Source: a virus. From it: DNA of 64,000 nt. The stretch lies in IMG/VR virus record IMGVR_UViG_3300042549_002989, positions 5,195 through 69,194 of that record. One strand, written 5' to 3'. The position numbers and the translations under genes were made by a program. Numbering within the stretch: the stretch's first letter is position 1; each line of letters begins with the position of its first letter. The notes beneath the pieces are model-generated. The model searched no databases. It worked only from the letters and a program-made list of their open reading frames with translations, and was not told the DNA's origin. Below, piece by piece: positions 32,120 through 64,000 of the stretch.

Positions 32120-33663
32120 TGTTTACAGGAAACTTATACCCATTTCAAGAAGAAGCCAGCCAGCGTATGGTTGACAAAGGACAGATGCTTTTAGCCATGG
32201 TTATGGGTGCTGGTAAAACAGTTACCACTATCTCTGCTTTAGAAGAATTGTTTGATTTAGGTGAGTTGGACAGAGTATTGATTGTTGTTCCAAGCAGTCT
32301 CAAGTATCAGTGGTTACGAGAAATTAAAAAGTTTACAAACTCGTCAGCCTGCGTTATTGACGGCCCACCTAAGCACCGTGAAATTATTTGGCGTTCAGCA
32401 TTGCGCTGTAAGTATGTCATTGTCAACCCAGAGACACTTCTTAACGATCAAACTTACTTGACACATCTTGGTGCAAACGCCATAGTAATTGACGAAGCCA
32501 CCATCATTAAGTCTCCTCGTGCCAAGCGTTCTAAGATGCTAAAGAAACTAGGAAAGAAGTTTCAATACAGATTTGCACTTACAGGTCAACCTATTGAAAA
32601 CAAGCCAGAAGAACTATTTTCAATAATGGAATTTGTTGACCCCAATGTGCTGGGTCGCTTTGATATCTTTGACCGTACTTTTATTGTGAGGAATCACTAC
32701 GGCGCTCCAATTCGTTATCGCAATTTAAGTTCTTTAAATGATTCTCTTTCTGAAGTGATGGTTCGCAAAACTCGTGAAGACATTCAAGACCAACTACCCA
32801 ATGTGATTACGCAGGTAGTGCCCATTCGGTTTGATACTGCTGGTGCGGCAATCTATGAGAAAATATGTAAAGACTTAATTGATGAAATCAATAAAGCAAT
32901 AACAAGTCACGGTCAAGGGTTTGACTTGTGGTCACACTACAACGGCGCAGGAGGTAATGATGCGCAAGGTCAAATCATGGCTAGGCTTACTGTACTTCGC
33001 ATGCTTTGCGATAATCCTCAGTTGGTGTTGGAATCTGCTAAGGCATATGATGATCCTTCACAGACGACAGAAGGTAGTCAGTACGCTTCAAACATTGTCA
33101 AAGCAGGCTGGCTCCCCCAGACCGTTAAGGCACCCAAACTAGACGCAGTCATAACCTACATTAAGGATGTATTAGATGAAGACCCGAATAACAAAGTGGT
33201 TCTATTCTCGTTCTTTAAAAAGAACCTACGGCTTATCCAGAAAGCAACTGAAGGATTTACGCAAAGCGTACTCTTCATGGGTGGTATGGACGCAAGCCAG
33301 AGAGACCTTGCCAAGCAAAGATTTGCCACCGATCCTGATGTTCGGCTCTTTCTATCGTCTGATGCGGGAGGTTATGGCGTGGACTTACCACAGGCCAATT
33401 ACCTTATCTCTTACGACCTCCCTTGGTCGGCTGGAAAACTGGACCAAAGAGAAGCCCGAATAATCAGATTATCTTCAACACACCCCCATGTCACAATTAC
33501 AGCATTCGTAATGAAGGGATCTATTGAAGAAAGGCAGTATGAAATGCTGATGCAAAAGCGTGGAATTAACTCTGCATTCCTTGATGGAAATTATGACAAT
33601 CAAGGTAAGTTTGAACTCTCATTGGGCACCTTGTCCGATTTTTTAAAAAACACAGAGGTATAA
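32119..33663 (+). CDS. SNF2-family helicase/ATPase
   Basis: MGAGKT, DEAT, LTGQP, GGYGVDL and QREARI motifs. Confidence 0.9.
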   Translation: MFTGNLYPFQEEASQRMVDKGQMLLAMVMGAGKTVTTISALEELFDLGELDRVLIVVPSSLKYQWLREIKKFTNSSACVIDGPPKHREIIWRSALRCKYVIVNPETLLNDQTYLTHLGANAIVIDEATIIKSPRAKRSKMLKKLGKKFQYRFALTGQPIENKPEELFSIMEFVDPNVLGRFDIFDRTFIVRNHYGAPIRYRNLSSLNDSLSEVMVRKTREDIQDQLPNVITQVVPIRFDTAGAAIYEKICKDLIDEINKAITSHGQGFDLWSHYNGAGGNDAQGQIMARLTVLRMLCDNPQLVLESAKAYDDPSQTTEGSQYASNIVKAGWLPQTVKAPKLDAVITYIKDVLDEDPNNKVVLFSFFKKNLRLIQKATEGFTQSVLFMGGMDASQRDLAKQRFATDPDVRLFLSSDAGGYGVDLPQANYLISYDLPWSAGKLDQREARIIRLSSTHPHVTITAFVMKGSIEERQYEMLMQKRGINSAFLDGNYDNQGKFELSLGTLSDFLKNTEV

Positions 33664-45161: not shown

Positions 45162-45343
45162 TGCCAAGTTTTAGAGGTAAAAGAGTAACTCACAAAGGTT
45201 ATTTTTCACCACCAAAGGGAACTCCATTAAGTGATGAATCAGCAAGAATCATGGACGAGAAGCGCATGGGCATGAAGCGCATGCCCGATGGTGGCAAAGA
45301 ACAACCACCAAACCTTGACGAGTACCCACGGGGGAACAACTAA
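45161..45343 (+). CDS. Small protein, N-terminus MPSFRGKRV
   Basis: TAATG-coupled on both sides. Confidence 0.65.
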   Translation: MPSFRGKRVTHKGYFSPPKGTPLSDESARIMDEKRMGMKRMPDGGKEQPPNLDEYPRGNN

Positions 45344-45630
45344 TGCCTAATGGACAAGATACCCGTTTCCACTCAGGTCGCTTAGTAGGTCGTGAATATC
45401 GGGCTATGACTAGGGGCACGCTTGCTCAAAACCAACAAGATGGTTACACCCATCCAACAGGTCCAACTACCATTTTTGGAGAAGAAGGCGCAGGAATGGC
45501 TCGTAGGTTATACCGTCAATCCCGTAGGACTGGAGCAAACGAGCAGGACGCCAGATCTCTTGCTATCCGTTATTCCATTATCGGCGCTCGTGATTCCTCT
45601 CAAGGTGCAAAAGGCTACGGAGGTAGATAA
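45343..45630 (+). CDS. Small protein with GxDTxxHxxRxV N-terminal motif
   Basis: MPNGQDTRFHSGRLVGR. Confidence 0.7.
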   Translation: MPNGQDTRFHSGRLVGREYRAMTRGTLAQNQQDGYTHPTGPTTIFGEEGAGMARRLYRQSRRTGANEQDARSLAIRYSIIGARDSSQGAKGYGGR

Positions 45631-45842
45631 TGGCTCGTGGAGAAGATACTCGCTTTCACTCAGGTCGTGGTGTAAGTCGTGGCGCATATGCCCAACTTGC
45701 TCGTGAACTTTCTAAAGGGTTTCCACAGATGAGTGATAATGATGGTCCTCGCCCTACAACGCATGGGTGTAATTCGTGTAACGAACCAACCTCCACAGAT
45801 CATGGTATTTGCGCTGACTGTCGTTCAAAAGGTTACAAATAA
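45630..45842 (+). CDS. Small protein with GxDTxxHxxRxV motif and zinc finger
   Basis: MARGEDTRFHSGRGVSR; CNSC...CADC. Confidence 0.7.
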   Translation: MARGEDTRFHSGRGVSRGAYAQLARELSKGFPQMSDNDGPRPTTHGCNSCNEPTSTDHGICADCRSKGYK

Positions 45843-46219
45843 TGCCTCGTGGACAAGATACTAGTAAGCACCCTAATCGTGGTGTAGACCGTGGAGCATT
45901 TGCACGACTTGGTCGCTCTGACCTTCCTCGGCTTTCGGAAGCCCTTGCAAATCATTTAAATGATTCTTTAGAAGGAATGAAGGAAGACTACGAAGACAGC
46001 GACACCGTTGAAGACGAGTTTGTCATGAGTCACTCCATGCCTAGCCTTATTAGAAAACCTTTTACGGGCAATAATTCCTACACCCAACCTTTTTCTGAAG
46101 GTGACGCATCTAACGCTCTTCAGGCATATCGCCAACGCCGTGATTCAGGAAAAATGGATTCTGACGATAAAGAGTTGTACGGAAACGATATTAAAGAAGC
46201 ATACAGGAATAGGGGTTAA
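45842..46219 (+). CDS. Small acidic protein with GxDTxxHxxRxV motif
   Basis: MPRGQDTSKHPNRGVDR. Confidence 0.7.
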   Translation: MPRGQDTSKHPNRGVDRGAFARLGRSDLPRLSEALANHLNDSLEGMKEDYEDSDTVEDEFVMSHSMPSLIRKPFTGNNSYTQPFSEGDASNALQAYRQRRDSGKMDSDDKELYGNDIKEAYRNRG

Positions 46220-48918: not shown

Positions 48919-49098
48919 GTGGCAAGCCGTCCTTTCATTAATCAGGTTCGTATAGCGTTAGTTATTACGCAGTCTTTATTGCGCAAAGCGATCCAAGACA
49001 GGGACATACCTGTTAATGAAGGTGATGCTGTGTTAACTCATCTTGACGATTCTTTGGATATTATTCGTCCACACATTAAGAAACAGGACAAGATTTGA
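48919..49098 (+). CDS. Small hypothetical protein (59 aa)
   Basis: GTG start; TTGA overlap with the next gene. Confidence 0.45.
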   Translation: MASRPFINQVRIALVITQSLLRKAIQDRDIPVNEGDAVLTHLDDSLDIIRPHIKKQDKI

Positions 49099-50534
49099 AA
49101 GTATTTTTTGGTGGAGCCGAAAAGGGTTCTTACCGTTCACTGCTTCTGAGTGCAGGGGTGGATAAGTTTGCTATTAACCTAACCCACTACGCTGTTCCTA
49201 AGCGCAAAGTTCTTGATCTCGCAACGGTGTTTCAGGGGCATGATATCATCCTCTACACATCAGAGAATGACGAAGACCTATCTCGGTACGACTCATTTGT
49301 TCGTGAACACATTGATAGTTTGACTTATGTGATTGGACGCCCAGACTACGATGGGGCATGGATGGGTGACAAGTATGTGCCCATCTGGAATGACGGCTCT
49401 GACCTAGAGAGACTGACATGGCTATGTCAGAAGTATGGTCGTGTAGCGATTAGTGACAAGGCAATTACAGGTCGCAATGTGGCTCGTATCGGTCAGATTG
49501 CCTTGCGTTGGGGAACCAACCTCATTGGGCTTACATCCAAGCCAGACATCATTGAGCGTGTCGGCTGGGAGGCTGTAGTAGTGGGTTCATGGTCTAGTGC
49601 CGTGCGCTATGGAGAGACACAGGTGTGGGATGGTCACGCCTTACACAGATACCCAGCACAACAAAAAGAAACTGCCCGTAAGAGACACAGAGCAGACATA
49701 CAGCGCTTAGGTGTGGACTACGATGGCGTCATCAACGATGAAGTTGGTGCAGTCGCACACCTTGCTATCCAGTCATGGAAAGCATGGGAAACTAAAAACT
49801 TTGGGGGCTATGACCTTATGAATGACGATGACGAGACAGAGTTTGATGACTCTTCAGAAAGCCAAATCATTATGATTTCGGGTGATAGCGATAGTACCCC
49901 AAGTGTGGCACCAAGGGGTACCAACATTGTTACTAACCCCCCCAACAGACGGCACGCAAACGAAAAAACATTGCTCCCGATTATGGGTATTGACACCATC
50001 ACTTCAATGGGTACTCAAACAGCAGATGAGCACGGAAATGCAATAGAAATTGACCCTGAACAGGTACCAGTTCTTCGCTATAACGCTAACCCATTACGCC
50101 AATGCAATCATTGTTACTTGGCAAGCCGTTGTCCCCAGTTTCAAGAAAATAGTGAGTGTGCGTTTTCTTTGCCTATTGAGATTCGCACAAAGGATCAACT
50201 TCAGTCTGCACTGCGTGCTCTTGTAGAGATGCAAGTAGGTCGTGTGATGTTTGCTCGCTTCGCAGAAGAACTAGAAGGACAGGGTCTTGACTCCACTCTT
50301 TCTGGTGAGATTGACCGTCTGTTTAATCTAGTTGAGCGCTTTAAGAGCATCAATGACAACAGAGATCTTGTGCGCTTTGAAGTTGAGGCACGAGGCTCTA
50401 GTGGCGTGCTGTCTCGTCTGTTTGGAGCCAAGGCTGGAGACCAAGCACGAATGCTTCCCAATGGTGGTCTAGACCAATCTGGTGCTGACGCCATGTACGC
50501 AGACATTATTGATTTATCTGACGACACTCGTTGA
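49095..50534 (+). CDS. Two-domain protein: degenerate TIM-barrel-like N-half plus Cys4 C-terminal domain
   Basis: KVFFGGAE start, SWSSAVRYG; acidic linker; CNHC....RC...EC; GVLSRLFG. Confidence 0.6.
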   Translation: MKVFFGGAEKGSYRSLLLSAGVDKFAINLTHYAVPKRKVLDLATVFQGHDIILYTSENDEDLSRYDSFVREHIDSLTYVIGRPDYDGAWMGDKYVPIWNDGSDLERLTWLCQKYGRVAISDKAITGRNVARIGQIALRWGTNLIGLTSKPDIIERVGWEAVVVGSWSSAVRYGETQVWDGHALHRYPAQQKETARKRHRADIQRLGVDYDGVINDEVGAVAHLAIQSWKAWETKNFGGYDLMNDDDETEFDDSSESQIIMISGDSDSTPSVAPRGTNIVTNPPNRRHANEKTLLPIMGIDTITSMGTQTADEHGNAIEIDPEQVPVLRYNANPLRQCNHCYLASRCPQFQENSECAFSLPIEIRTKDQLQSALRALVEMQVGRVMFARFAEELEGQGLDSTLSGEIDRLFNLVERFKSINDNRDLVRFEVEARGSSGVLSRLFGAKAGDQARMLPNGGLDQSGADAMYADIIDLSDDTR

Positions 50535-52680: not shown

Positions 52681-53265
52681 TTGCTGTTTGTTCGTTTAGG
52701 TTTAATCGCCACACTTTCTCTACCCACTATTCCAGTTTCTCTGGATGCTGAACCCGTAGAACAAGAGGTGATAGCCGTAACGACAACGACAACGACAGTA
52801 CCTACTGACCTAGCAAACAAGGTCAAAGCAATGAGCCTAGAGGTGTTACCAGAAGAGTTACAGACTCAAATGCGTAAGAAGAAGACAATGCCTATTGCAT
52901 ACTGGGAGGCAGTTGCTGTGTGCGAGACAGATGCAGGCAGGCGTGGATGGACGGACAAAGGTAAGTGGGCTGGTGGTCTAGGTATCTATGTTGGTACATG
53001 GAATAACTGGGGTGGTCGTCAGTTTGCACCAACACCTGACAAGGCAACTAAGCACGAGCAAATTATTGTTGCGAACAGAATCAGTGTCTTTGGGTTTCAA
53101 ACAAAGAATAAGTTTCGGACACTTGATGACAGGATCAATAACCGTCCGTGGTTCCAACATAAAGTTGGATATTTTGGGTGGGGTTGTATAGCGAACAACC
53201 GATACTTACACCCTGAAGTGTGGAAGAAAAACCACAGCAAAAAGAAAGTACACTCTAATAAGTGA
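52681..53265 (+). CDS. Secreted Rpf-like lytic transglycosylase
   Basis: Signal peptide, Thr linker, WEAVAVCET...GGL.I...TW...GG...AT..EQI.VA...WGC. Confidence 0.85.
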   Translation: MLFVRLGLIATLSLPTIPVSLDAEPVEQEVIAVTTTTTTVPTDLANKVKAMSLEVLPEELQTQMRKKKTMPIAYWEAVAVCETDAGRRGWTDKGKWAGGLGIYVGTWNNWGGRQFAPTPDKATKHEQIIVANRISVFGFQTKNKFRTLDDRINNRPWFQHKVGYFGWGCIANNRYLHPEVWKKNHSKKKVHSNK

Positions 53266-53480
53266 GCACAGAGAGCATACTTATATCAGACATACTGGGC
53301 ACCTCAGAGGTTGCCACAGTTCTCGGTGTGAGTAAGCAACGCATCCACTCACTGAGGAAGATGGCAGAGTTTCCAGAACCATTCGTGACTCTTGCGTCAA
53401 CCCCTTTGTGGAATCGTATAGAGATTGTAGAGTTCTTGACGCAATGGCGTCCTTGGAAGGTTCTAGGTAATGAAGTTTGA
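53262..53480 (+). CDS. AlpA/excisionase-like HTH protein
   Basis: GTSEVATVLGVSKQRIHSL...FPEP...PLW. Confidence 0.8.
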   Translation: MSTESILISDILGTSEVATVLGVSKQRIHSLRKMAEFPEPFVTLASTPLWNRIEIVEFLTQWRPWKVLGNEV

Positions 53481-53622
53481 GCGATACACATGTCCTGACT
53501 GTCGTCAGTTTGTAGAGGTCGGCGTAAAGTTAGTGGCACCACCAACACACAAGTGCCCACGACACGCCAACAAGGTGCGTGTAATGACTCCAGTGACAGA
53601 AGAAAAGCCCCCCACCGATTAG
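53470..53622 (+). CDS. Small zinc-ribbon protein (50 aa)
   Basis: CPDC...HKC..H. Confidence 0.55.
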   Translation: MKFERYTCPDCRQFVEVGVKLVAPPTHKCPRHANKVRVMTPVTEEKPPTD

Positions 53623-53640
53623 GCAGGGGGCTACTTCTTG
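53601..53640. terminator. Bidirectional intrinsic terminator between convergent blocks
   Basis: AGCCCCC/GGGGGCT stem with an A-run on the left and a T-rich run on the right. Confidence 0.65.
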
Positions 53641-53647
53641 TAGTGGG

Positions 53648-54025
53648 TTAATCAATGCTGTCGGGTAATGGTGATAGTCGTGGAGAGTCACTAGACACAA
53701 AGAAGTCAACACCACCCCAGACGCCATATCTGAGGTCGTTTTTTCTTGCGAAGTTGTAGCACTCTTTACGAACATCACACTTACTACATAGTTTCTGTAC
53801 CTCTGCAATCATCATCGCTCGTGTGTTACTGCGATTGGCATTTTCGGTAAAGAACAATGAAAGCAAGTGTGGTTGACCTTTGCAAAACGCTTTGTCCCTC
53901 CATTGACCACCATCGTCATACTTGAGATGTGGTAGTTCAATAAAGTTCGTAGTGTCGTAGTCAGTTAGTCGTTGTCCACGGGAAACGAGGGGCTTTACGC
54001 CCCCCGTTACCTCCACCTGTTCCAT
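53648..54025 (-). CDS. whiB: Second WhiB-family transcription factor
   Basis: WRDKAFC, CSKCDVRKEC and GVWGG motifs. Confidence 0.88.
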   Translation of the reverse strand: MEQVEVTGGVKPLVSRGQRLTDYDTTNFIELPHLKYDDGGQWRDKAFCKGQPHLLSLFFTENANRSNTRAMMIAEVQKLCSKCDVRKECYNFARKNDLRYGVWGGVDFFVSSDSPRLSPLPDSID

Positions 54026-55071
54026 CAGGCTGGTACCAACTGCTTGATTGCCTCAAGCACTTGACGATCATTGTCTTGTGTCTTTCCGAGGACACCATTC
54101 AACTTGTTGCGCTCTGAACGGTTTGTATCCGTACCAGCGAACCAGTGGTTGTAGGTGTTCCATGCTTGCAGTACACCAAGAGATGTGCCCTTCCATGGCG
54201 AGACACGAGGGTCATTCTTGTAGATGTGGTTGATGAGTTCCTGCTTGTTGTTAATACGAGCCTGAACCTGTGGACGCACATTCACTTCCAACGATGGTGG
54301 TACAAGACGGTCAACGATTAACTTGAACTGAGTGTCGGTGACAACCTGTGTTGACAAGCGCTCAAGTTCAAGAGTTAATTCATCGGTGTACTCATGCACC
54401 AGAGTCAGTGCATCACGGACGCTCTGAATCTTGTCAATGGAATGCTTGCTGTGACGCACCTTGTGCTGTGGTGTCTGCTCACCGAGAGCACCAGCAAGCG
54501 TGTTGTCACACACCACGATGGTTGAGACCAACTGGTAGGTGGTTGACAGCGTGCCGTCATGCGAGGTGCAAGCAAGCAAGTGTGGTCGGATGTCAAACCC
54601 TGACGGTGTCTTGACAGTTTCAGGCAACTCAATGGTCACATAAGCCTTACCACCTTGACGCAAGAGACCAGCAGTACCGATGGCAAGATCGCTGTCGTCA
54701 ATGATGTTGGCAACATTCTTGAGCAACCATTCTTGGTACTGGTGTACTTGGTATCCAGACTTGAACACTGAGAACACAACACTTGGGTCATCGCTACGCA
54801 CGATGGACTTGCGTGATGGGTCATCAATGTAACGAGATGTTCCGTCACCGTTCGGGAACTTGATAGCGCTTCCTGCTTCAACAGCGTTCCAGAAGAACAG
54901 ACGGCGAAGGACATCGTCTACTGGGATGGCGTGTGGGTAGTGGTTGTTCTCAAGACCGAGAGACTCACGCAACGATGGGTTGTCGTGCCATGCATTGCCC
55001 CGACCATAGGTGGGGTCGGTGTATCCGATGAGTTGGTCTCGGTTGAGTACGAGGTTGGTTTCTTTTGACAT
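54025..55071 (-). CDS. DUF932-family protein
   Basis: AWH, YQVHQ, AGLLRQG, TSHDG, VVCDNTL and RHS motifs. Confidence 0.85.
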   Translation of the reverse strand: MSKETNLVLNRDQLIGYTDPTYGRGNAWHDNPSLRESLGLENNHYPHAIPVDDVLRRLFFWNAVEAGSAIKFPNGDGTSRYIDDPSRKSIVRSDDPSVVFSVFKSGYQVHQYQEWLLKNVANIIDDSDLAIGTAGLLRQGGKAYVTIELPETVKTPSGFDIRPHLLACTSHDGTLSTTYQLVSTIVVCDNTLAGALGEQTPQHKVRHSKHSIDKIQSVRDALTLVHEYTDELTLELERLSTQVVTDTQFKLIVDRLVPPSLEVNVRPQVQARINNKQELINHIYKNDPRVSPWKGTSLGVLQAWNTYNHWFAGTDTNRSERNKLNGVLGKTQDNDRQVLEAIKQLVPA

Positions 55072-55129
55072 GTAATGTCTCCTTTGGTTGTTTTGTTTGT
55101 GGGGTGTAGTGCGTTGTCCCACACCAGTA

Positions 55130-55158
55130 AAACTACAGGTGTAGAGTACAACTCACAA
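55130..55158 (-). promoter_or_regulatory. Putative sigma-70-type promoter for the DUF932/WhiB genes
   Basis: TTGTGA-17 nt-TAGTTT on the minus strand. Confidence 0.45.
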
Positions 55159-55163
55159 CTTGA

Positions 55164-55523
55164 TTAAGGGTTTTGATTTTGTAGTGTTTCCATTACAGGT
55201 GGAATGAGTTCCCTCAACTCAATCCACAGTAACGCAAGGTCTAGGGGTTCAAGCACCTGACGGGTGTACGCCCCCTTAGAAGCCTCTGTGAAGGCTTCTA
55301 AGAGGTCTTCACCGTGGGTGTCAAAGGTTAGGTAGCGATTACAGCCACCGTTACCATCGTTCTCCACAGCGAAGGACGCACCATTGTCTCCGTAGACGAT
55401 TGCAGAGAACCCAACACCAGCGTCCTCTACTTGCCATTCATCCGTAATTTCTACAGAGAATGTAAGTAACAACTCTGGCTTGTCGGGTAAAGACGCAGAA
55501 ACTGGATCGTTGTTCTCGGTCAT
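55164..55523 (-). CDS. Hypothetical protein
   Basis: VENDGNGGC motif; AAGGA SD. Confidence 0.65.
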   Translation of the reverse strand: MTENNDPVSASLPDKPELLLTFSVEITDEWQVEDAGVGFSAIVYGDNGASFAVENDGNGGCNRYLTFDTHGEDLLEAFTEASKGAYTRQVLEPLDLALLWIELRELIPPVMETLQNQNP

Positions 55524-55744
55524 TTATTGTCCTTCTTTCCTTGTTTAGCGTCCCATTCGTATATGCCTACTGCACCAAACACCAACAGAATAAAAATAAT
55601 TCCTGTAACGGGCTTTCCATAGTAGAAGATATTTGCAAAGACGCCGACATACGCACAGAATGCAAAGTAGACGAACATTGACGGGACAAAGACTCTCTTT
55701 CGGAATCGTGTGTAGTTGCTGATACGGATGTTTTTCATTGGCAT
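55520..55744 (-). CDS. Two-TM membrane protein
   Basis: Two hydrophobic helices; ATGA overlap. Confidence 0.6.
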   Translation of the reverse strand: MPMKNIRISNYTRFRKRVFVPSMFVYFAFCAYVGVFANIFYYGKPVTGIIFILLVFGAVGIYEWDAKQGKKDNK

Positions 55745-56025
55745 TGGTTCCTGCTTTCGTGTATGAAGTCAACAAATGCTTCAAGGTGCCATGATTCAAC
55801 TGCATTGAATGCTCGTACAGTGTTCTCCTTACGCCATGTAACACCTGCTGGTAATTCAAGGACAAGGCTGTCTTCACCATTGACCACGGCGTGGATGGCG
55901 TCAAGAGCCAAGGGAACCATGTTCAAGGGCACTGGTGGATAGCAGTTGTAAGAGAAGTGAACCTCTAACGACTTCTCCAAGTCATTTGTTGCTAATAGTT
56001 GGTCGTATGTACTTGTGTAACCCAT
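55735..56025 (-). CDS. Hypothetical protein
   Basis: H..YNCYPPVP...WHLEAF; GGAGG SD. Confidence 0.65.
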   Translation of the reverse strand: MGYTSTYDQLLATNDLEKSLEVHFSYNCYPPVPLNMVPLALDAIHAVVNGEDSLVLELPAGVTWRKENTVRAFNAVESWHLEAFVDFIHESRNQCQ

Positions 56026-56038
56026 GTTGTTGTCCTCC

Positions 56039-56269
56039 TTAGAACAGTGTTGTTTCGGGTGAAATTACTTTGGCGTCAATTAACTGACTGATGAGAGCCA
56101 GTACAGATTCTTGAGCCTCAGTCAATGAGAATGCATCTACTGGAATGGTCACAACGATGCTGTGCCTTTCCAAGACATTGGGTGTGCCACATGAGCACAC
56201 ACCTTTGTCATCAAATGATTCGTATGAGTTGTCGCATTCACGACACCAGAGTGGTAGTTGGTTGAGCAT
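56039..56269 (-). CDS. Small zinc-binding protein
   Basis: CREC...CSCG; AGGAG SD. Confidence 0.6.
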   Translation of the reverse strand: MLNQLPLWCRECDNSYESFDDKGVCSCGTPNVLERHSIVVTIPVDAFSLTEAQESVLALISQLIDAKVISPETTLF

Positions 56270-56279
56270 TGGTTTCTCC

Positions 56280-56525
56280 TTAGAGGTATTCAGCATCGTT
56301 GATGCCAAGGTGTGTGATGTCGGGGTCTTCGGGGTCTGTGTCAAACAAACCCCACTCAGACCGTTCTAATGGTGTTGTGGACAGTTCTACGGTTAGTTCC
56401 CCTTTACCTTTACCGAAGTGGTCAATGATGGTTCCTGCGTAGATGAGTTCAAATGCTTCGTCTTCGTCTATCGCTTCCACAGATATGTCAGCGACCCACT
56501 GGACTTCAAAGTTGAATGTAGCCAT
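56280..56525 (-). CDS. Small acidic protein
   Basis: ISVEAIDEDEA pattern. Confidence 0.6.
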   Translation of the reverse strand: MATFNFEVQWVADISVEAIDEDEAFELIYAGTIIDHFGKGKGELTVELSTTPLERSEWGLFDTDPEDPDITHLGINDAEYL

Positions 56526-56527
56526 GA

Positions 56528-57274
56528 TTATTTTGCTTCCTTCTCGTATCCGTCAAACCATTCGCCCTCTTTACGAGTGTCCTCACGCCTACAGTGCGCC
56601 TTAGCCTCTTGCAAAGTAAGACCTTCCAAGATCACTTTTGAACTGCGTCCAGTGTTTGGATGGTAGTTGCGCACGACTTTGTAGGTGTACACATCCACGG
56701 GAATGTGAACCTCATACTCTTGGTCGTAACTAGGGGTGCCATTGACTACTGGGTAGGCGTAGCAGTTCCAGTTCTGCGTGTCTTCGTCCAGAACAAAGTT
56801 CAAGTCAACACGGTTATTGAATGAATGGAAGATGTCTTCGTCCTTAGATGGCTCGTTGCTAATAAATGACCGAGCGAACTCGGTGATGGCATCAATGTTC
56901 TGCTTGATGTACGCAGTAGTGACTTCGTAGTCACTGATGATTGTGTTGGTCATTGGTTTCTCTTTCTGTTGGTTGATTGGTGTTGGGTACTCGGCGCTGA
57001 ACTCTTCTTCGGTGAGAAGACGCTCAGGTGCGTACCAATCCTCATGGGTACGCACTCGGTCAGGTGTACGAAGACGGACACAGGCAAAGGAACCACGGAA
57101 TTGTGACTCTTTGTACTGTTTGTCCATCCACGCAAGTGCTTCTAACCCACTGGAAAATACGCCGTAGTAATGACGATCTCCATCGGGCATAGTTACAAAT
57201 ACAAAACACTGACCATACTCTTTGATGTACTCAGTAGTTGGTGGATAGTGAGTGTCTTCAATTTGCTCAGTCAT
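56528..57274 (-). CDS. Mosaic hypothetical protein with in-frame internal start at 56953
   Basis: TAATG-coupled start; internal A/C-rich leader plus ATG. Confidence 0.6.
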   Translation of the reverse strand: MTEQIEDTHYPPTTEYIKEYGQCFVFVTMPDGDRHYYGVFSSGLEALAWMDKQYKESQFRGSFACVRLRTPDRVRTHEDWYAPERLLTEEEFSAEYPTPINQQKEKPMTNTIISDYEVTTAYIKQNIDAITEFARSFISNEPSKDEDIFHSFNNRVDLNFVLDEDTQNWNCYAYPVVNGTPSYDQEYEVHIPVDVYTYKVVRNYHPNTGRSSKVILEGLTLQEAKAHCRREDTRKEGEWFDGYEKEAK

Positions 57275-57462
57275 TAGTATTCCTCCTCTAATAATGCAAC
57301 TTCCCATGGGCTGTCCCAGCCCACAGAGCCGTCTGAGTCTTCTGACTTCAGTTGGTCATCATCGTAAGAGTAATAAACTGCCTCGGCTTCTTCGGCTGAG
57401 TTTGCTTCAACCACATACATGTGGTTAACAGTTTCACTTACATATATTGCGTATTTGGGCAT
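57274..57462 (-). CDS. Small acidic protein
   Basis: YVVEANSAEEAE; AAAGGAG SD. Confidence 0.65.
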   Translation of the reverse strand: MPKYAIYVSETVNHMYVVEANSAEEAEAVYYSYDDDQLKSEDSDGSVGWDSPWEVALLEEEY

Positions 57463-57474
57463 GTTGTGTCTCCT

Positions 57475-58032
57475 TTATGACAATGCTTTTTGTAGTTCAT
57501 CAAGTTCTAGACCAAGCCAGTTCTTGAAAGTTTCCAGATTCTCTGGCTTTACCTCAATGCTCACTGAGGTAGAGAACAGGTTTGATGTCGGGTCAAAGAC
57601 CAAACAAATTGGGAACTCCAACCATGGTGTGTTCTCAATAAGTTCCTCCAACCAATCGTTGAACACTGCCTTACGGTTTGCAATGGGGTCACCCCAAGAG
57701 CCTGTAGTCCAGCCTCCAATGACAGATGTGAACCCGTCAATGGTGGTCTCGTAGTGACCACGCCATCCGTCAGTTGAAACATACTTACGCTCAAACTTGA
57801 TGTCTGGTGTGTCTCCGTACTCATTAATGGCAAACGCATCCCCGACTTGGTGTTTCTGTTTCTCACCGTGCTGAATAAACCACACGGTAGACGAGTGGTC
57901 AAGGTCGCTGGAATAGCACTCATCGCAGAACCAGTCTCCCTTTATCTCAGAGAACTGTCCTTCATTTTGGTTGTCAAATGTGCTTTGGCATTCTGCACAT
58001 TCGCTAGTTGTATCTGTTGTTATATCTGACAT
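57475..58032 (-). CDS. Hypothetical protein with N-terminal zinc finger
   Basis: CAEC...CDECY; STDGWRG. Confidence 0.65.
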   Translation of the reverse strand: MSDITTDTTSECAECQSTFDNQNEGQFSEIKGDWFCDECYSSDLDHSSTVWFIQHGEKQKHQVGDAFAINEYGDTPDIKFERKYVSTDGWRGHYETTIDGFTSVIGGWTTGSWGDPIANRKAVFNDWLEELIENTPWLEFPICLVFDPTSNLFSTSVSIEVKPENLETFKNWLGLELDELQKALS

Positions 58033-58034
58033 GG

Positions 58035-58940
58035 TTATCTCCATACTTTCTTGCTGAATTGTTCCAGCACTTTTAATTTGATTTCTTTGGGAATGCGTTG
58101 TTCCCAATCTTGTAACACTGCTTGAACTGTAAAGGCGTATGCCTCAACTGCTGTGTACACCCGTACATCCTTATCTACATGCATACGAAACCCACGAGGG
58201 TCATGGATGTCCACAGTTGTTTTATGCAGGTAATTTCTCATGTACACAGCGCACCATGCAACACCAGCCTTGATTGCATTATCAAAATGATCTTCTGTTG
58301 ATGCAGGTGAATCAAGTTCATGCGCTAGTTTTTCAATGGTTTCTTCTGCTAGTTGTTCAAAATAATTCTTTGTGAGATTGAACGCAGTGAGTGCCTCTAC
58401 TTTTAGTTTGTTGAGTTCCTTCTCTCGTTCAATGTCTTCCTTTCGGCTCACAATCAATCGTTTAATTTGTTCTAACTGTTGACCATTGTCCCACTGGTTG
58501 TTAACCCAACGGTACTTCTCTCGGTCGGCATTCTCTAATGAGAAGTGCCAAGACGGTGCGACCACTTCGTAGGGCGTCCTCACAATCTCACCATCAACCA
58601 GTTCAACTTTGTGACCTGCAAAGTACAGCGCCTTGTCACTAACAACCTCAACGATTACTTCGCTAGATAGGTACACAACCTCACCTGACAGGTGCACATA
58701 CTCATCAACCAATGTTTGGGGTTGAGTACCAGTGAGTGATAACTGGGTGTACCAAGTTGTCCGTGCGTATGAATCACTGGGGGTGACTTGGTAGAACACA
58801 TCAGTCGCTGTGTAGCCAGCGATGTTGTGCAGTCTTCGCACCGTCTTGCCTTCACGAGAGCGTCCATCAAATGAATGCTTTTGTGTTACTCCGTTCTGCA
58901 CTCGTTCAAGCACAGTTAGTTCTTTTGTTTCTGTTGTCAT
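58035..58940 (-). CDS. Hypothetical protein
   Basis: 301 aa, AAGGAG SD. Confidence 0.7.
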   Translation of the reverse strand: MTTETKELTVLERVQNGVTQKHSFDGRSREGKTVRRLHNIAGYTATDVFYQVTPSDSYARTTWYTQLSLTGTQPQTLVDEYVHLSGEVVYLSSEVIVEVVSDKALYFAGHKVELVDGEIVRTPYEVVAPSWHFSLENADREKYRWVNNQWDNGQQLEQIKRLIVSRKEDIEREKELNKLKVEALTAFNLTKNYFEQLAEETIEKLAHELDSPASTEDHFDNAIKAGVAWCAVYMRNYLHKTTVDIHDPRGFRMHVDKDVRVYTAVEAYAFTVQAVLQDWEQRIPKEIKLKVLEQFSKKVWR

Positions 58941-58979
58941 GTCTATTTCTCCTTGGGTTATTTGTTATTGATTGTTTAC

Positions 58980-59435
58980 TTATTCAGTTGGCACGCCATT
59001 GACCATTGTGCATGACATGGTTTCTAGGAAGTGCTCAAATAATTCGTTCTCGTCTGCTACCTCATTAGTAAAGATGACCAGCAGTCCGTCTTCGTCAGTG
59101 CCCACTTGTAGTTTTGGGAATGTCTTTTTCAATTCTAAAATTGCGTCAATCTCAACGGGAATATAAGAATCTACTTTGATCTCTATGTTGCTATCCCAAG
59201 GCTCGGTGGTCACGAAGTAACCGATGCGATTTACATGCGCTATCCCTGTGATTATGTAAGTGCCATCTTCACCGTCTACCCATGTCCACACACGGTTGTC
59301 ATGCTGATTACACACGAAGGCATACTCATCGTCATAGGTCTCAAACATGAGACCGTTCCATGAAGCGTCAGGGACTAGGTGGTTGGTGATGGGCTTGTAG
59401 ATTTCTTCCCATTGGTCGGTTGTTAGTTGTGTCAT
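58980..59435 (-). CDS. Hypothetical protein
   Basis: FETY..E...VWT...G.A.VNRIGYFVT; AAAGGA SD. Confidence 0.7.
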   Translation of the reverse strand: MTQLTTDQWEEIYKPITNHLVPDASWNGLMFETYDDEYAFVCNQHDNRVWTWVDGEDGTYIITGIAHVNRIGYFVTTEPWDSNIEIKVDSYIPVEIDAILELKKTFPKLQVGTDEDGLLVIFTNEVADENELFEHFLETMSCTMVNGVPTE

Positions 59436-59467
59436 TTGATGTTCCTTTTGTTGTGATGGTGATTGCT

Positions 59468-59550
59468 GGGCAAGTGCCCTCAGAACGCTCAGGACGGCTC
59501 CTAAGCGCTCTGAGGACACCACCGACACCCAAGGGTGCCGATGATGTCCC
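59468..59550 (-). ncRNA. Triple-hairpin leader element, copy A
   Basis: H1 16 bp (59514-59549), H2 21 bp (59474-59519), H3 GGGC/GCCC; adjacent arms overlap; G-U pairs only on the minus strand. Confidence 0.7.
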
Positions 59551-59557
59551 AAGGTCG

Positions 59558-60046
59558 TTACCAGCGTTCTGGCGTGGCGTACTCAATGCCCCAGTCAAGG
59601 TCAATGAACCATTCCTCATTGAACTGGACACGGGTGTCACCACTGCTGATTGCTCTGCCGAGGGCTTCTTGTTCCTCTGCATTGAGGTAGTAGAAGATGT
59701 CCACATCGGGTACACCGAAGATGTCTTTTTCCATTGGCTCGTTGCGATGGTCAAAGACCTCATCGGAAAATGACACATAGACATTCTGTGTGCTGTCATC
59801 ATCACTGTCGTCTGTCCAATGGATGGACACGACAGCACCGATGGCACCAGCAACGATGTAGCCATTGGAATCAGCGTGACGAGTGTTGATGTTTCGTGCG
59901 ATGCGTAGACGGCGTCCGTCCGTAGCGTCATTAATCAACTCCCATTCTCTGTCCGTCCAGTTGGTGGTGTCAAAGACACCAATGCCATCGGCATCTCCGT
60001 AGTTACCATCGCTGGCGAAATAGTGTTGTTGTTGTTGCTTGGTCAT
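59558..60046 (-). CDS. Acidic hypothetical protein
   Basis: YFASDGNYGDA...DT..WT..EW; second half D.DIFYY. Confidence 0.7.
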   Translation of the reverse strand: MTKQQQQHYFASDGNYGDADGIGVFDTTNWTDREWELINDATDGRRLRIARNINTRHADSNGYIVAGAIGAVVSIHWTDDSDDDSTQNVYVSFSDEVFDHRNEPMEKDIFGVPDVDIFYYLNAEEQEALGRAISSGDTRVQFNEEWFIDLDWGIEYATPERW

Positions 60047-60047
60047 G

Positions 60048-60488
60048 TTATTTACCTTCCTTAAAGTTGTTGAACCATTCGTGACCGTTGATGTCGGTCA
60101 GTAACTCATAGAACTGGAAGAGGTTTACACCTCGTATACCTTCTATGGATTCCACGACATCTTCTCGTGGGGAATACTCGTATTCTTCAATGATGACGAC
60201 ATCAGCAGATCCTTTCTCTACAAGAGCAAGGATGTCAGCAGGTGTAAGACCGTCTGTGATGAGGTCATCAACATTGCACAGGTGGTGTTCCAGTGAGCAC
60301 TTCAGTGCGAACTCTTTTAGTTGCTCGTATGAGTATGACTGGGGCTGAATGTCTTCGTGACGGACTGCCCAGCCTTTACCAAGGTCTGCATTGATGTCAT
60401 TGAGAACGCTCTTGATAGCGATGTCAATGAATTGGTTTGCTGGCACTTCATCGGGGTGCTCAACAGTGATTAGTAGTTGTGTTTTCAT
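60048..60488 (-). CDS. Hypothetical protein
   Basis: AGGAG SD before the ATG at 60488. Confidence 0.65.
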   Translation of the reverse strand: MKTQLLITVEHPDEVPANQFIDIAIKSVLNDINADLGKGWAVRHEDIQPQSYSYEQLKEFALKCSLEHHLCNVDDLITDGLTPADILALVEKGSADVVIIEEYEYSPREDVVESIEGIRGVNLFQFYELLTDINGHEWFNNFKEGK

Positions 60489-60524
60489 GTGGTGTTCTCC
60501 TAGTGGTTGGTTGTTGGTGCTTGT

Positions 60525-60620
60525 GGACATGCGTCCCTTGAGCACTGGGATACGGGAAAGGGGGAAACCGTACCCCAGTACCCAAGGCACGCCACGAGGG
60601 TTCACCCCGTGACGCCACCC
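60525..60620 (-). ncRNA. Triple-hairpin leader element, copy B
   Basis: H1 11 bp (60589-60615), H2 20 bp (60536-60587) with UUUCCCCCUUUC loop, H3 GGAC/GUCC. Confidence 0.7.
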
Positions 60621-60639
60621 TGAGCACCACCTCAGATTG

Positions 60640-62181
60640 TTAGCCGACCCAGTCGGACAAGAGCGCTGATACAAGAGAGTCTGTGTCAGCGTTCAAGTCT
60701 TCAGCGAAGCCGTCAAGCACTGCACTGAGCACTTCTTGCTTCGCATTGAGTAGGGCGAAAAGTCGCTCATCAATAGTGTCTGAGCCGTTCTTGCGTGCAC
60801 CAATGAGGTGATGACAAGTCACGGATGATTCCTGCGATATACGGTGGCATCTATCTTCTGCCTGTGTGAGCGATGCAGGTGTCCACGGATTCTCCACGGA
60901 CACCCACTGGTTCGCACGAGTGAGCGTAAGACCGACACCAGCAGACTCGTAGTTGCCTACGAACACTGACGCACGACCTGATTGGAAGTCGTCAACTGCT
61001 GACTGCTTGTCTGCATCTTTCATTCCACCAAGCACCGACACGACATTCCATCGTGGGTCTTTGGTAGAGCGTGCCTGACACTCATCAATGATTGCATTGA
61101 GCACTGAGCGATGGTGACCAAACACCACGACAGGTTCATCTGTTTCAATGATGGACTCAATGTAATCAATGGCGTGCTTAACCTTTGCCTTAGCGATTGC
61201 CTGACGCATTGCTGTCAACTTGGTGATGGTCTCAGCACGAGATGCCTTGAGGACAGCCTCACGACCACCCTTGTCCCATACCCAAGCGAGGAAGTCGCCC
61301 TCAATGCGTAGGTACTCACGCAACTCAACATCGCTCAACTCAATGGCAACAGATGCACGGCGCTTCGCTGGCAACTCCTTGAGCACATCTTGCTTGCGCC
61401 TACGGATGTAGCAAGTGCCACGCAACTTGGCGTGTAACTCTGCACTGTTGGTAGAGCCATTGAATGTCCACCCAAAGTCATTCTTGACTGGGTCGCAGTA
61501 GTTCCACTTGAACGAACCAGCCGAGCCGAAGACAGGCTTCAGCGTGCCGATGATGTCAAGCAGTGCTACTAACTCCACTGGACGGTTGACTGCTGGTGTA
61601 CCTGAAGCAAGCACGACATACCCATCCTTTGGAATGCCCTGTGCGATGCCATAGAGCGCCTGTGTGCGCTTGCTCTTGGGGTTCTTGAAGCGATGTGCCT
61701 CATCCACAAGCAACGCTCCGAAGGACTCTTTGGTGAGTGCCTTAGCCCAGCCGACAAGCCCAGCGTCACCAATGACGGTGACCTGAGCACCTGACAGTGC
61801 GTAGGGCTTCGTTGACTCAAGCACCTCAACAGTGACCACACTGTTGGTGAACTTGGCAATCTCACGCTCCCAGTTGAGGCGTAGTGATGGTGGCACGCTG
61901 ATGAGGACACGGTGACCCTCCTCAACAGCCTTGACAGCGACTGCGATGAGTTGTGGTGTCTTACCGAGACCCATCTCATCACCGAGCAGTACACGGCGTT
62001 GCTTGAGTGCATACGCCACGCCAGCACGCTGGTATGGCAACAGTGGCAACGCAAGATCAAAATTAAGGTCGTAGTCGTGTGCGCTGGACAGTGATGTCAG
62101 TTCGGGGCAGACATCTTGAGGTAGTTGAACCTTGACGGACTCGGCAAGCAAGTCGTCAAGGGATGAACGAAAATTAGACAT
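60640..62181 (-). CDS. SNF2/HARP-like helicase (second copy)
   Basis: LLPYQ, DEMGLGKT, DEAH, SGTP, GVGLTLT and QAEDRCHR motifs. Confidence 0.92.
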   Translation of the reverse strand: MSNFRSSLDDLLAESVKVQLPQDVCPELTSLSSAHDYDLNFDLALPLLPYQRAGVAYALKQRRVLLGDEMGLGKTPQLIAVAVKAVEEGHRVLISVPPSLRLNWEREIAKFTNSVVTVEVLESTKPYALSGAQVTVIGDAGLVGWAKALTKESFGALLVDEAHRFKNPKSKRTQALYGIAQGIPKDGYVVLASGTPAVNRPVELVALLDIIGTLKPVFGSAGSFKWNYCDPVKNDFGWTFNGSTNSAELHAKLRGTCYIRRRKQDVLKELPAKRRASVAIELSDVELREYLRIEGDFLAWVWDKGGREAVLKASRAETITKLTAMRQAIAKAKVKHAIDYIESIIETDEPVVVFGHHRSVLNAIIDECQARSTKDPRWNVVSVLGGMKDADKQSAVDDFQSGRASVFVGNYESAGVGLTLTRANQWVSVENPWTPASLTQAEDRCHRISQESSVTCHHLIGARKNGSDTIDERLFALLNAKQEVLSAVLDGFAEDLNADTDSLVSALLSDWVG

Positions 62182-62207
62182 TGTGTCTCCTTGTTGTAGT
62201 TGGTGCT

Positions 62208-62296
62208 CAACGGGCGAGGGTATCGCCCTCACCAACCACTCACAACTTGTGAATGGATAGTGAGGGCGCCACGGGCGAACCCGTGACACCCCGTTG
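62208..62296 (-). ncRNA. Triple-hairpin leader element, copy C
   Basis: H1 12 bp with UUCG loop (62264-62291), H2 21 positions (62224-62268), H3 6 bp (62212-62228), closing CAACGGG/CCCGUUG. Confidence 0.75.
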
Positions 62297-63040
62297 TCAC
62301 GCTGGCACAGAGCGATTCAGAATCTCTCGTGCCTCTTTGGTTGTTGGGTACCACCAGCCGTTGTTGCCAGCACAGGTTGCCCCGTACCCAACAGCAAGTG
62401 ATGTGTCTTCGCTGAGGTCACGACCACAGCACACACAGAAGCCATAGGTCTTGCCGAGTGATGACGCCTCTTCTTGAGTGAGAAGAGTGCCAGTCGCACG
62501 CACGATGTTGACGCCACCTTTCCAGTATTCCAGCCCACCGACACCGTCTTCAATGACAAGACGGCGCATAGCGAGATAGCCATTCTGTGTGGTGTAGGCG
62601 ATAGCGATGGTGCCGTCTTCACAACGGTACGCACGCTTCGCCTCAACCTCAATGAGATTCTCATGCACTGCTGGTGCAGGTACAGACTCAGGTGCAGGTG
62701 CACCACACGCACCAAAGGCGTGGTATGTCTGCCAGCCTGAAGCGAGTTGTACGCACCAGCCTGTCTGAGACTCTACGGAACCTTTACAGAGCGCACAGGG
62801 CTTGCTGTATCGGTTGACAATAGTGCGACCTTTGGGAAGGTGCGCATGCTCAGGGTTGTCAGGCTTCGGTATGGCGAGCAACTTCTCAATGACAGCGCTT
62901 GCTGACTGACCAGTGAGTCGGTCAATGCCCTTGTCACGGATGTATGCGTCAATGTCATCAATGCCGAGTACTGACTGACGCTCCGTGAGTAATGAGCGTA
63001 TGAATGATTGTTGCTTGGGTGTGATGGTGCTTGCTGACAT
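62297..63040 (-). CDS. Multi-zinc-finger protein with DUF6011-like C-terminus
   Basis: TPKQ..FI N-terminal helix; CALC...H..C; CVCCGRDL...S...GYG.TC. Confidence 0.75.
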   Translation of the reverse strand: MSASTITPKQQSFIRSLLTERQSVLGIDDIDAYIRDKGIDRLTGQSASAVIEKLLAIPKPDNPEHAHLPKGRTIVNRYSKPCALCKGSVESQTGWCVQLASGWQTYHAFGACGAPAPESVPAPAVHENLIEVEAKRAYRCEDGTIAIAYTTQNGYLAMRRLVIEDGVGGLEYWKGGVNIVRATGTLLTQEEASSLGKTYGFCVCCGRDLSEDTSLAVGYGATCAGNNGWWYPTTKEAREILNRSVPA

Positions 63041-63232
63041 TTATTTTCCTTTCAAGATGTCGGTAGGGATGCAGTAATGCTTGCCTTGGTATGACTGGTT
63101 GACGACAACGCCGTCACATTTTTGGTGGAACTCATACGAGTTTTTTACAACGACAAAAAGAGTCGCTAGTAAAACGCCAAGTGTGAGTAGCAGTACAGCA
63201 AGGATTGTGTTTTCGGTGGTTGATTCTTTCAT
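63041..63232 (-). CDS. Small single-TM protein
   Basis: Hydrophobic helix, then C....C; AGGAG SD. Confidence 0.6.
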   Translation of the reverse strand: MKESTTENTILAVLLLTLGVLLATLFVVVKNSYEFHQKCDGVVVNQSYQGKHYCIPTDILKGK

Positions 63233-63241
63233 TGGTTTCTC

Positions 63242-63556
63242 CTATTGGTTGATTAGTTGTGTATTGGTTGACAAGAGTTCCCATCCGATGTGGTCACACA
63301 AGTAGAGGTTGCCGTCAACCTCTACCGTGTCACCTACAGACAATGCTGTGTGCGTGCGCTTGCCGTTGTCAGGAAGAACTGGCTCCAAGATGTCCCACAG
63401 ATCACCTTCGTAAAGGTTCGTGTCACGGAACACCTTCTCGCACAGGATGATGTCGTCCACTGGTGGTGCGTCATACTGGATAGTTGCTGATGTTGCCTGT
63501 CGTGATGGTGTGTCTTCGTGGCAGAAGGCTTTCCATGTAATGGTGATGGTTTTCAT
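63242..63556 (-). CDS. YodL-like domain protein
   Basis: HTALSVGDTVEV...YLCD.IGW. Confidence 0.65.
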   Translation of the reverse strand: MKTITITWKAFCHEDTPSRQATSATIQYDAPPVDDIILCEKVFRDTNLYEGDLWDILEPVLPDNGKRTHTALSVGDTVEVDGNLYLCDHIGWELLSTNTQLINQ

Positions 63557-63573
63557 TGTTGCTCCTTTATTGG

Positions 63574-63897
63574 TTAGGCGAACACGAGTTCACCGAAGAA
63601 CCCGTACTGCCATATTTGGTCATGGTCGTAGTGGTCGGTCTCAAGGTCACGCAACTCTTCCCAGTCGCCACCGTTCTCAAGCCATTGCTCAATGCCCTTG
63701 AGAGCAGTTGCATTGTCGTACACGAATGTGAGTCCGTCAGTCTTAATGACGATGTCGTTGTTGTCATCGTAAGACACTTCGTATTCATCCTCTACCCAGT
63801 AGCGAGTGCCATTGGACAGTTTGAGGTAGGCGAGCACCTCTTCGGGCACTGTCACTGTGTAGGTGACGGTTATTTGATGTCGTGTGGTAGTGGTCAT
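63574..63897 (-). CDS. Acidic hypothetical protein
   Basis: D...D.I.QYG.FGELVF ending; AAAGGAG SD. Confidence 0.7.
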   Translation of the reverse strand: MTTTTRHQITVTYTVTVPEEVLAYLKLSNGTRYWVEDEYEVSYDDNNDIVIKTDGLTFVYDNATALKGIEQWLENGGDWEELRDLETDHYDHDQIWQYGFFGELVFA

Positions 63898-63916
63898 TGG
63901 TTCTCCTTTGTTGGTT

Positions 63917-63998
63917 GAGCAGATGCTCACAGAAGGCACCGAGCGCTAACCCGATGCCCTCTGTGAGCACCACGAGGCAGGGGGCGCCTCGTGATGCC
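63917..63998 (-). ncRNA. Triple-hairpin leader element, copy D (5' edge at window end)
   Basis: H1 12 bp (63967-63997), H2 20 bp (63924-63969), H3 GAGC/GCUC. Confidence 0.7.
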
Positions 63999-64000
63999 GT

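Follow-up and report, generated by a model that had tools for sequence, protein, structure and literature searches.

The minus-strand module and its four spacers

The window, a 64,000-nt stretch of an IMG/VR viral contig (G000:C1:5195-69194; record IMGVR_UViG_3300042549_002989; CheckV completeness 73%), encodes portal, tail sheath and baseplate proteins, PolA, a DnaB-like helicase, two SNF2 helicases and a queuine-tRNA-ribosyltransferase-like protein. The phage DNA polymerase shares at most 32-36% identity with those of isolates, a nucleotide search of a phage isolate collection with the phage DNA returned no match, and the phage DNA is present in many lake-water metagenomes, with no RNA run found among those that contain it; the source phage is an uncultivated lake-water myovirus. 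The queuine tRNA-ribosyltransferase-like gene (49095-50534; phrog_887, 4e-34) hints at 7-deazaguanine modification of the phage DNA.

From approximately 53.2 kb to the end of the window all genes lie on the minus strand and are densely packed, with junctions of 0-39 nt except for one spacer of 92 nt and four long spacers, which are the elements described here. The module that contains them is an early, minus-strand polycistronic transcript and is closed by a canonical intrinsic terminator (53606-53632, minus strand), an 11-bp GC-rich stem followed by a U tract, and the host polymerase is therefore expected to use U-tract terminators.

Copy C (62182-62296, minus strand) makes up the entire 115-nt intercistronic spacer that separates the g4 stop codon from the start codon of an SNF2-family helicase gene. 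The g4 product (62297-63040, minus strand; 247 aa) has a weak match to DUF6011 that falls below the Pfam cut-off, and the UGA stop of g4 is 4-5 nt upstream of s1, the first of the four alternating segments considered below. The helicase gene (60640-62181, minus strand) lies directly 3' of copy C and encodes 513 aa with matches to PF00176 (7e-28), PF00271 (1.7e-11) and phrog_62 (6.8e-100). A second SNF2-family paralogue is present at 32107-33663 on the plus strand; both paralogues match phrog_62 at about 1e-100, from opposite strands. Within g4 (62597-62753), a depth spike and loose ends of GCAGGT repeats were seen in all four lake-water DNA runs; this is a short Pro-Ala-coding repeat that is common to contigs of other organisms.

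An earlier note on this DNA had flagged 62208-62296 and named three further copies of the element; its coordinates were exact, its segment letters are those of the minus (coding) strand, and the three copies exist, all on the minus strand and homologous to copy C (mean column identity 52-53%). Copy A (59453-59552) is between g7 and g8; copy B (60511-60620) is directly 3' of the SNF2 gene and 5' of g6; and copy D (63905-63998) is upstream of g1, with its 5' end at the contig end and a complete counterpart at L002:1032-1129. L002 is a 98% relative, and this contig opens (positions 1-25) with the family tail motif and a Shine-Dalgarno (SD) sequence before an ORF, so that a fifth copy may precede copy D, outside the available contigs.

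The four copies of the window and the four of a complete 94-kb relative (G001) were used to build a covariance model, which matched copy C at 62197-62294 (68.9 bits, E 4e-17) and found exactly four copies in the window and the head of its contig, four in the whole of G001 and two in G003, which is truncated; every one of these lies on the coding strand. Further lineages were sought by pattern scans of viral contigs followed by a covariance-model or nhmmer screen, which added at least four: L153/L144, L147/L123/L128, L260 (five copies) and L317 (seven copies). The family thus comprises at least 29 distinct copies in at least six related phage lineages. The alignment used below (A4) holds 32 matches, 29 of them distinct and 28 full length; all 32 are on the coding strand, and antisense matches scored below 23 bits. 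The covariance model found no copy in 22 distant SNF2-bearing loci (of roughly 77 distant loci). A search of the whole window with Rfam gave no match at gathering score and, in E-value mode, only two sub-threshold miRNA-hairpin matches; a tRNA and tmRNA search found none. The element family is lineage-specific.

All copies share an anatomy of three hairpins, Ha, Hb and a short Hc, followed by a leader with a strong ribosome-binding site. Ha combines a conserved lower stem (R-U-C-A-C ... G-U-G-G-Y-G) with a variable upper stem in which changes are compensatory; Hb shows many compensatory changes and recurrent G.U pairs; and an Hc of 4-7 bp could be drawn by eye in 17 of the 17 distinct copies tabulated. 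The leader often begins AGCACC..., continues with AAGGAG or GAGGAGG and ends at ATG, and in G001 and L317 it holds a small SD hairpin as well. There a conserved 5-bp hairpin (GACCU-UAGG/GAGG-AGGUC) just 3' of the element carries the SD in its loop; this hairpin was found in copies E2 and E4 of G001 (L014), in all copies of L317 and at L144:704, and is absent from the lineage of the window. As read from the sequences of the window and G001, the element starts 2-12 nt past the upstream stop in six of eight copies, and 24 nt past it in B-type copies. The motif GGTGCTCA was also considered as a stand-alone shared site; it had seven matches against 2.4 expected, a number reached by 2 of 100 shuffles, and was dropped.

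Alternative pairings within one element

The minus-strand RNA of 62182-62300 has a predicted folding energy of -60.3 kcal/mol, whereas its shuffles averaged -38.5 (z -6.27) and 0 of 200 folded as well; the plus-strand RNA of the same region gave a z of -3.65. The fold is built on four segments of alternating orientation, which in copy C read GGGG(U) for s1, GCCC for s2, GGGC for s3 and GCCC for s4. Two folds of nearly the same energy can be drawn. The best fold, T, consists of three abutting hairpins of 12, 15 and 6 bp (-58.0 kcal/mol). In the other, J, which is 0.7 kcal/mol higher (-57.3 kcal/mol), a closing helix CAACGGG/CCCGUUG is formed, Ha is reduced to 8 bp, Hb grows to 19 bp and Hc is gone.

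In T, Ha (62264-62291) has 12 bp and a UUCG loop, with s1 at 62288-62291 and s2 at 62264-62267; the family motif, (G)UCAC...GUGG(C), lies in its lower stem and includes a U.G wobble. The core of Hb (62229-62263) has 15 bp with one U.U mismatch, and is extended by GCCC/GGGC in J. Hc (62212-62228) is a 6-bp stem, GGGCGA/UCGCCC, that repeats the foot of Ha, with s3 at 62225-62228 and s4 at 62212-62215. The 3' strand of the closing helix, CCCGUUG, is at 62208-62214 and pairs in J with CAACGGG at 62290-62296; on the plus strand these positions read CAACGGG and CCCGTTG respectively. The remainder of the spacer (62182-62207) is an unpaired CA-rich leader (AGCACCAAC...) that contains the SD of the SNF2 gene, AAGGAG, at 62187-62192, with a predicted mean probability of being unpaired of 0.84.

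The near-equality of the two states was examined in all 28 distinct full-length copies, with s2 and s3 set by alignment columns and an 8-nt 5' flank added; an earlier version of the test with segment anchors chosen by eye agrees with this column-defined test, which is the main result. In a nearest-neighbour model that leaves out coaxial stacking, the energy of J relative to T ranged from -5.1 to +4.6 kcal/mol; the two states differed by no more than 1.2 kcal/mol in 17 of 28 copies and by no more than 2.5 kcal/mol in 21, and seven copies favoured one state by 3.3-5.1 kcal/mol. This balance was lost when base pairs were permuted: permutation within Ha and Hc, with T given, led to gaps that averaged +1.8 to +12.0, and the observed value was reached no more than 3 times in 60; within Hb, with J given, the averages were +3.9 to +9.5, and the observed value was reached no more than 8 times in 60. 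The length of Hb was 19-24 bp in J (20-22 bp in 24 of 28 copies) and 11-19 bp in T.

The alignment assigns the same nucleotides to two partners. Segment s2, the 3' foot of Ha, is complementary both to s1, the 5' foot of Ha, and to s3, the 5' arm of Hc, and both pairings covary. With s1 (columns 4-9) as partner, 83.8% of the cells of s2 (columns 34-39) were paired, a value that fell to 36-65% when the partner was slid; there were 18 double-change cells, and 1 of 500 shuffles reached the covariation score of 0.347. With s3 (columns 112-117) as partner, 91.4% of the s2 cells were paired, as opposed to 27-60% after sliding, with 27 double-change cells and a score of 0.461 that none of 500 shuffles attained. 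The model to which A4 was fitted includes the J pairs and leaves out the T pairs, and, as the copies are a mixture of paralogues and orthologues, the covariation in these counts may rest on few independent events. Column 35, which is C or U, formed GC in 13, AU in 14 and another combination in 2 copies with column 8, and CG in 14 and UA in 15 with column 116; one nucleotide thus tracks two partners. The covariation and the permutation controls together show that both pairings are kept by selection.

Passage between the states also appears easy in these models. Predicted direct-path barriers between T and J were 3.7-10.9 kcal/mol for 15-27 changed pairs, as would be expected for stepwise exchange, and before s4 is transcribed s1 and s3 are predicted to be balanced as partners of s2 within 2 kcal/mol in seven of eight copies. 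The claim from which this analysis started, that segments can pair 1:2 plus 3:4 or 2:3 plus 1:4, is thus borne out by the folds and by column covariation, and so is its expectation of two near-isoenergetic states, for most copies. Its statement that the core sequence varies between copies under a constant four-fold complementarity holds for all 29 distinct homologues found, and its proposal that hairpin 2 could vary in length agrees with a predicted change from about 15 to about 21 bp. Neither one dominant fold nor homologues lacking the four-fold complementarity, the two outcomes it had set against itself, turned up.

Sense-strand RNA and a possible role in mRNA processing

Several features distinguish the strand and the molecule that are likely to fold. 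The U.G pair of the Ha lower stem (column 9 with column 34) is present in 28 of the 29 distinct copies, and a hand tally of the stems of 17 distinct copies, which left out identical rows and the 5'-truncated copy D of the window, gave about 78 G.U cells against 5 A.C cells. Among the Ha loops of 16 copies, as read from the folds, UUCG occurred four times and GNRA-type loops (GCAA, GAGA or GCGA) another four. Natural variants at 62235 and in L002 preserve or improve pairing: A>C at 62235 (plus strand), found in four of four lake-water DNA runs and in L002, replaces the Hb U.U mismatch by U.G on the minus strand; of the two further L002 changes in copy C, one exchanges A-U for G.U and one lies in a loop. 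The 62235 substitution was the sole population variant within copy C in the four lake-water DNA runs, which consist of contigs and showed no joints. With DNA parameters the two strands fold equally (z -5.3 and -5.1), and energy alone is therefore compatible with single-stranded DNA; it is the wobble, the G.U excess, the loops and the variants that argue for RNA.

The U.G wobble, the G.U excess and the tetraloops (UUCG and GNRA) favour sense-strand RNA, and the same features speak against the suggestion of the earlier note of a Holliday-like junction in single-stranded DNA that might be bound by SNF2, resolvases or SpoVS. That the elements are a sense-strand RNA family with two conserved alternative pairings is, in our assessment, very probable. 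Conserved spacers of this kind, with two predicted folds, suggest a switch built into the RNA.

Our best guess, drawn from the predicted length of Hb, is that this switch is a signal for mRNA processing and stability, comparable to the RNase III sites of T7. The toggle between T and J would proceed by branch migration, the foot of Ha and the stem of Hc being one short word and its complement; T would present three tandem hairpins, and J a closed junction with Hb extended to about 21 bp. In J, Hb would be a helix of roughly two turns and a substrate for a host endonuclease specific for double strands (RNase III type), and cleavage there would separate one block of genes from the next on the polycistronic mRNA. 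Once cleaved, the RNA would re-pair, s2 with s1 and s3 with s4. The upstream product would thereby terminate in the long Ha hairpin and be shielded from 3' exonucleases, and the downstream product would open with Hc ahead of the leader and ribosome-binding site, which would protect its 5' end. A terminating ribosome could bias the toggle.

We favour this model because Hb in J, at 20-22 bp in most copies, has the two-turn size of an ideal RNase III substrate, which for the E. coli enzyme is given as 22 bp, two A-form turns (PMC3867540). The model would also explain why the same nucleotides have to serve two helices. A search for the RNase III family in the phage genomes G000 and G001 found none encoded, so that a host enzyme must be assumed, and a cut in Hb would leave overhangs of about 10 nt, so that protection of the ends would not be immediate. 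The statement as a whole, an intercistronic RNA family that toggles between T and J by branch migration, acts by such a cut-and-cap mechanism and provides cassette joints, is given a probability of about 0.4. A stronger version, in which the spacers are a new class of RNA device, a natural branch-migrating four-way RNA junction with both folds functional, the closed one offering a two-turn helix for cleavage or for a double-strand-binding protein, the open one capping the new mRNA ends, and the shift perhaps driven by a terminating ribosome or by the transcribing polymerase, is more tentative and on balance doubtful. If both states are functional, the element would be a compact natural example of four-strand RNA exchange and a testable model of how the same nucleotides can be used both for cutting a polycistronic message and for protecting its ends; in synthetic biology it could be a ready-made intercistronic insulator.

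Gene order, alternative readings and known analogues

Close relatives differ in gene content at the elements. In L017, which is 97.6% identical over aligned DNA, a 663-nt insertion follows directly after the tail of copy B and holds a second copy of g2 (L017:4536-4891; 94.8% identical to g2 of the window, 63242-63556). In population contigs, loose ends fall at positions 63251, 63552 and 63575, suggesting that the g2 cassette is polymorphic for presence or absence. Gene order is g7'-A-g6-g8 in the G001 lineage and g6-g7-A-g8 in the window; G001 has no copy before SNF2, and its homology with the window resumes in the tail of copy C. The more diverged lineages carry five to seven copies, some approximately 380 nt apart and flanking single small genes. 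Placed as repeats at gene boundaries, the elements could also serve as recombination joints for cassette exchange, and they bear on phage genome evolution in that the same elements mark these joints.

The SNF2 gene lies between a C-type and a B-type copy in five of six lineages. The link to this gene that the earlier note had drawn is correct in that copy C precedes SNF2 and copies flank it in those lineages, but other copies precede unrelated small genes and G001 lacks a copy at that place; the link is positional only.

That the elements are recombination linkers and nothing more, with PeSL-like boundary homology, hairpins as by-products of nested palindromes or templated quasi-palindrome mutation, and two states without a role, is unlikely, although no other alternative fares better. 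The gene-order differences fall exactly at the elements, the loose ends lie beside the g2 cassette, the diverged lineages space their copies around single small genes, and there is a precedent in the PeSLs (PMC2839356). DNA-level correction, however, should erase G.T mismatches, yet the U.G wobble persists in nearly all copies; and strand asymmetry, RNA tetraloops, compensatory stems and a constant J-state Hb of about 21 bp are not needed for homology, which also leaves one nucleotide covarying with two partners unexplained.

A device at the level of translation was also considered, in which the folded spacer would insulate the ribosome-binding site 3' of it and a terminating ribosome would strip s1, s2 would move onto s3 and s4 would be freed, giving the next gene a longer unpaired landing pad and long-range translational coupling by branch migration. 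The placement of the upstream stop 2-12 nt before s1 in most of the window and G001 copies and the conserved leader with a strong SD at the end of every copy would suit such a device, and masking the first 16 nt from the stop made the long Hb the best fold in copies D, C, A and E4. The long Hb was not the best fold in E2, B and E3, however, E2 retaining a short Hb when masked; the B-type copies have their stop 24 nt upstream; and SD accessibility responded to masking inconsistently, falling from 0.84 to 0.51 in C, rising from 0.42 to 0.88 in A and remaining unchanged in four copies. We regard this reading, too, as unlikely.

HK022 put RNAs, which are two-hairpin RNAs, offer the comparison for a role in transcription, where the element would be a pause, attenuator or antitermination RNA that acts on the polymerase in the promoter-proximal part of the early operon. 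The copies do cluster in the first 5-6 kb of the operon, in G001 just after a 371-nt putative promoter region, and attenuators are typically two-state; yet no U tract follows any copy in a phage that has a canonical terminator at the end of the module, no N-like arginine-rich protein was apparent among the translated small early proteins, and four to seven copies per operon are unlike put or nut sites, and we consider the role improbable. As an intrinsic terminator the element was rejected: besides the missing U tract, 0 of 13 terminator-like sites fell within the elements, and the tails read AGCACC....

Recognition of the Ha lower stem by an RNA-binding protein of the phage or host, with the junction as scaffold only, seems quite improbable. 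The foot of Ha is conserved in sequence (UCAC/GUGG), and besides the near-constant U.G its A-U and C-G are the same in all 17 copies compared, but in two copies the motif has changed with compensation, to UCAG/CUGG (L153:3463) and to GCAC/GUGC (L147:10456), and no candidate RNA-binding protein was identified among the phage proteins examined. Least of all do we credit a DNA-level structure, a cruciform or single-stranded DNA junction for replication, recombination or packaging that perhaps involves the neighbouring SNF2 enzyme: the equal folding of both strands with DNA parameters and the copies on each side of SNF2 in most lineages would fit it, but the G.U excess would fill the opposite strand with A.C mismatches, the elements always follow the direction of transcription and sit exactly between stop codon and SD, G000 and G001 encode no integrase and no Y1 transposase, and G001 has no copy before SNF2. 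The cruciform reading was set aside on the G.U excess and strand orientation.

Phage early operons are punctuated by hairpins, of which the T7 RNase III sites and the PeSLs are examples. T7 transcripts carry RNase III processing signals between genes (R0.3, R0.5, R1.1 and others), and the elements resemble these in being a small family of homologous, irregular, sense-oriented hairpins in the spacers of a polycistronic mRNA, with a helix of about two turns (20-22 bp, by prediction, for Hb in J in 24 of 28 copies). A hairpin left on the upstream product would stabilise it, a logic that matches that of the T7 sites. The two differ in that there is no sequence relation and in that the elements have three hairpins, a mobile junction and two conserved pairings, in a fold that is predicted only.

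The elements share with PeSLs the form of repeats of about 100 nt between small early genes, with a G/C-clamped stem-loop and an SD and start codon at the end, and they likewise flank variable genes and mark the indel joints at which close relatives differ in gene content. PeSLs (promoter-early stem-loops) are cassettes of T4-type phages that contain a strong sigma-70 promoter and a stem-loop that acts as a terminator (PMC2839356); they are also treated in PMC4122927. A sigma-70 consensus scan of 53000-64000 gave six promoter-like sites (10.9 expected), none of them on the minus strand in the four spacers. The elements are thus unlike PeSLs in having neither a promoter-like site nor a U tract, and PeSLs are not described as two-state. 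Identity with a PeSL cassette in the strict sense was rejected, no promoter-like site being present within the elements.

Bistable RNA switches include designed ones that use branch migration (PMC1802593). In common with attenuators and riboswitch platforms, the elements have two mutually exclusive helices on one strand, here backed by covariation, with near-equal energies and exchange by strand displacement. They are unlike these in that four segments swap, so that all are paired in both states, and in that the SD is hidden, or a terminator formed, in neither of the two states. There is no evident ligand pocket or leader peptide, and the SD lies outside both folds, with a predicted accessibility of 0.37-0.84 that shows no consistent dependence on the state.

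Two classes of DNA repeat were also compared. REP/BIME sequences of enterobacteria occur in hundreds of copies and both orientations and are mobilised by RAYT transposases; they are, like the elements, transcribed GC-rich palindromes between the genes of operons and can stabilise upstream mRNA. REP/BIME and IS200-type palindromes were rejected, the elements occurring in four to seven copies per genome (four here), in a single orientation and with no Y1 transposase encoded (no PF01797 match in G000 or G001). Integron attC sites are structured, imperfect palindromes that separate co-oriented cassettes and conserve structure above sequence, and copy C happens to have ...CAAC/GTTGAGC ends. This identity was rejected too: the CAAC/GTTG ends are found in copy C only, the core sites not being general; a search of G000 and G001 for tyrosine recombinases (PF00589) gave no match; and the evidence favours RNA over one DNA strand.

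The T7 RNase III signals are therefore closest in function, the PeSLs in genome dynamics and the bistable strand-displacement switches in physics, and the element belongs to none of them. The literature, searched in full text (supplements aside), returned these analogues but no description of the element family. The elements are an unusual, conserved two-state junction in structured intercistronic phage RNA, and a strand that covaries with two partners in this way, its two folds being conserved in the six lineages, turned up neither in Rfam nor in the full-text literature searched.

Two other groups of repeats were noted in the window. At 45341-45915, three small adjacent ORFs open with a common repeat of 54-77 nt (69-78% identical) and thus form a small paralogous gene family. 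At 28293-28384 there are three near-tandem 22-nt repeats (about 82-100% alike), each containing a short palindrome; this region has strong predicted folds on either strand (-51.5 and -42.5 kcal/mol per 100 nt) and could be an operator or origin-like array.
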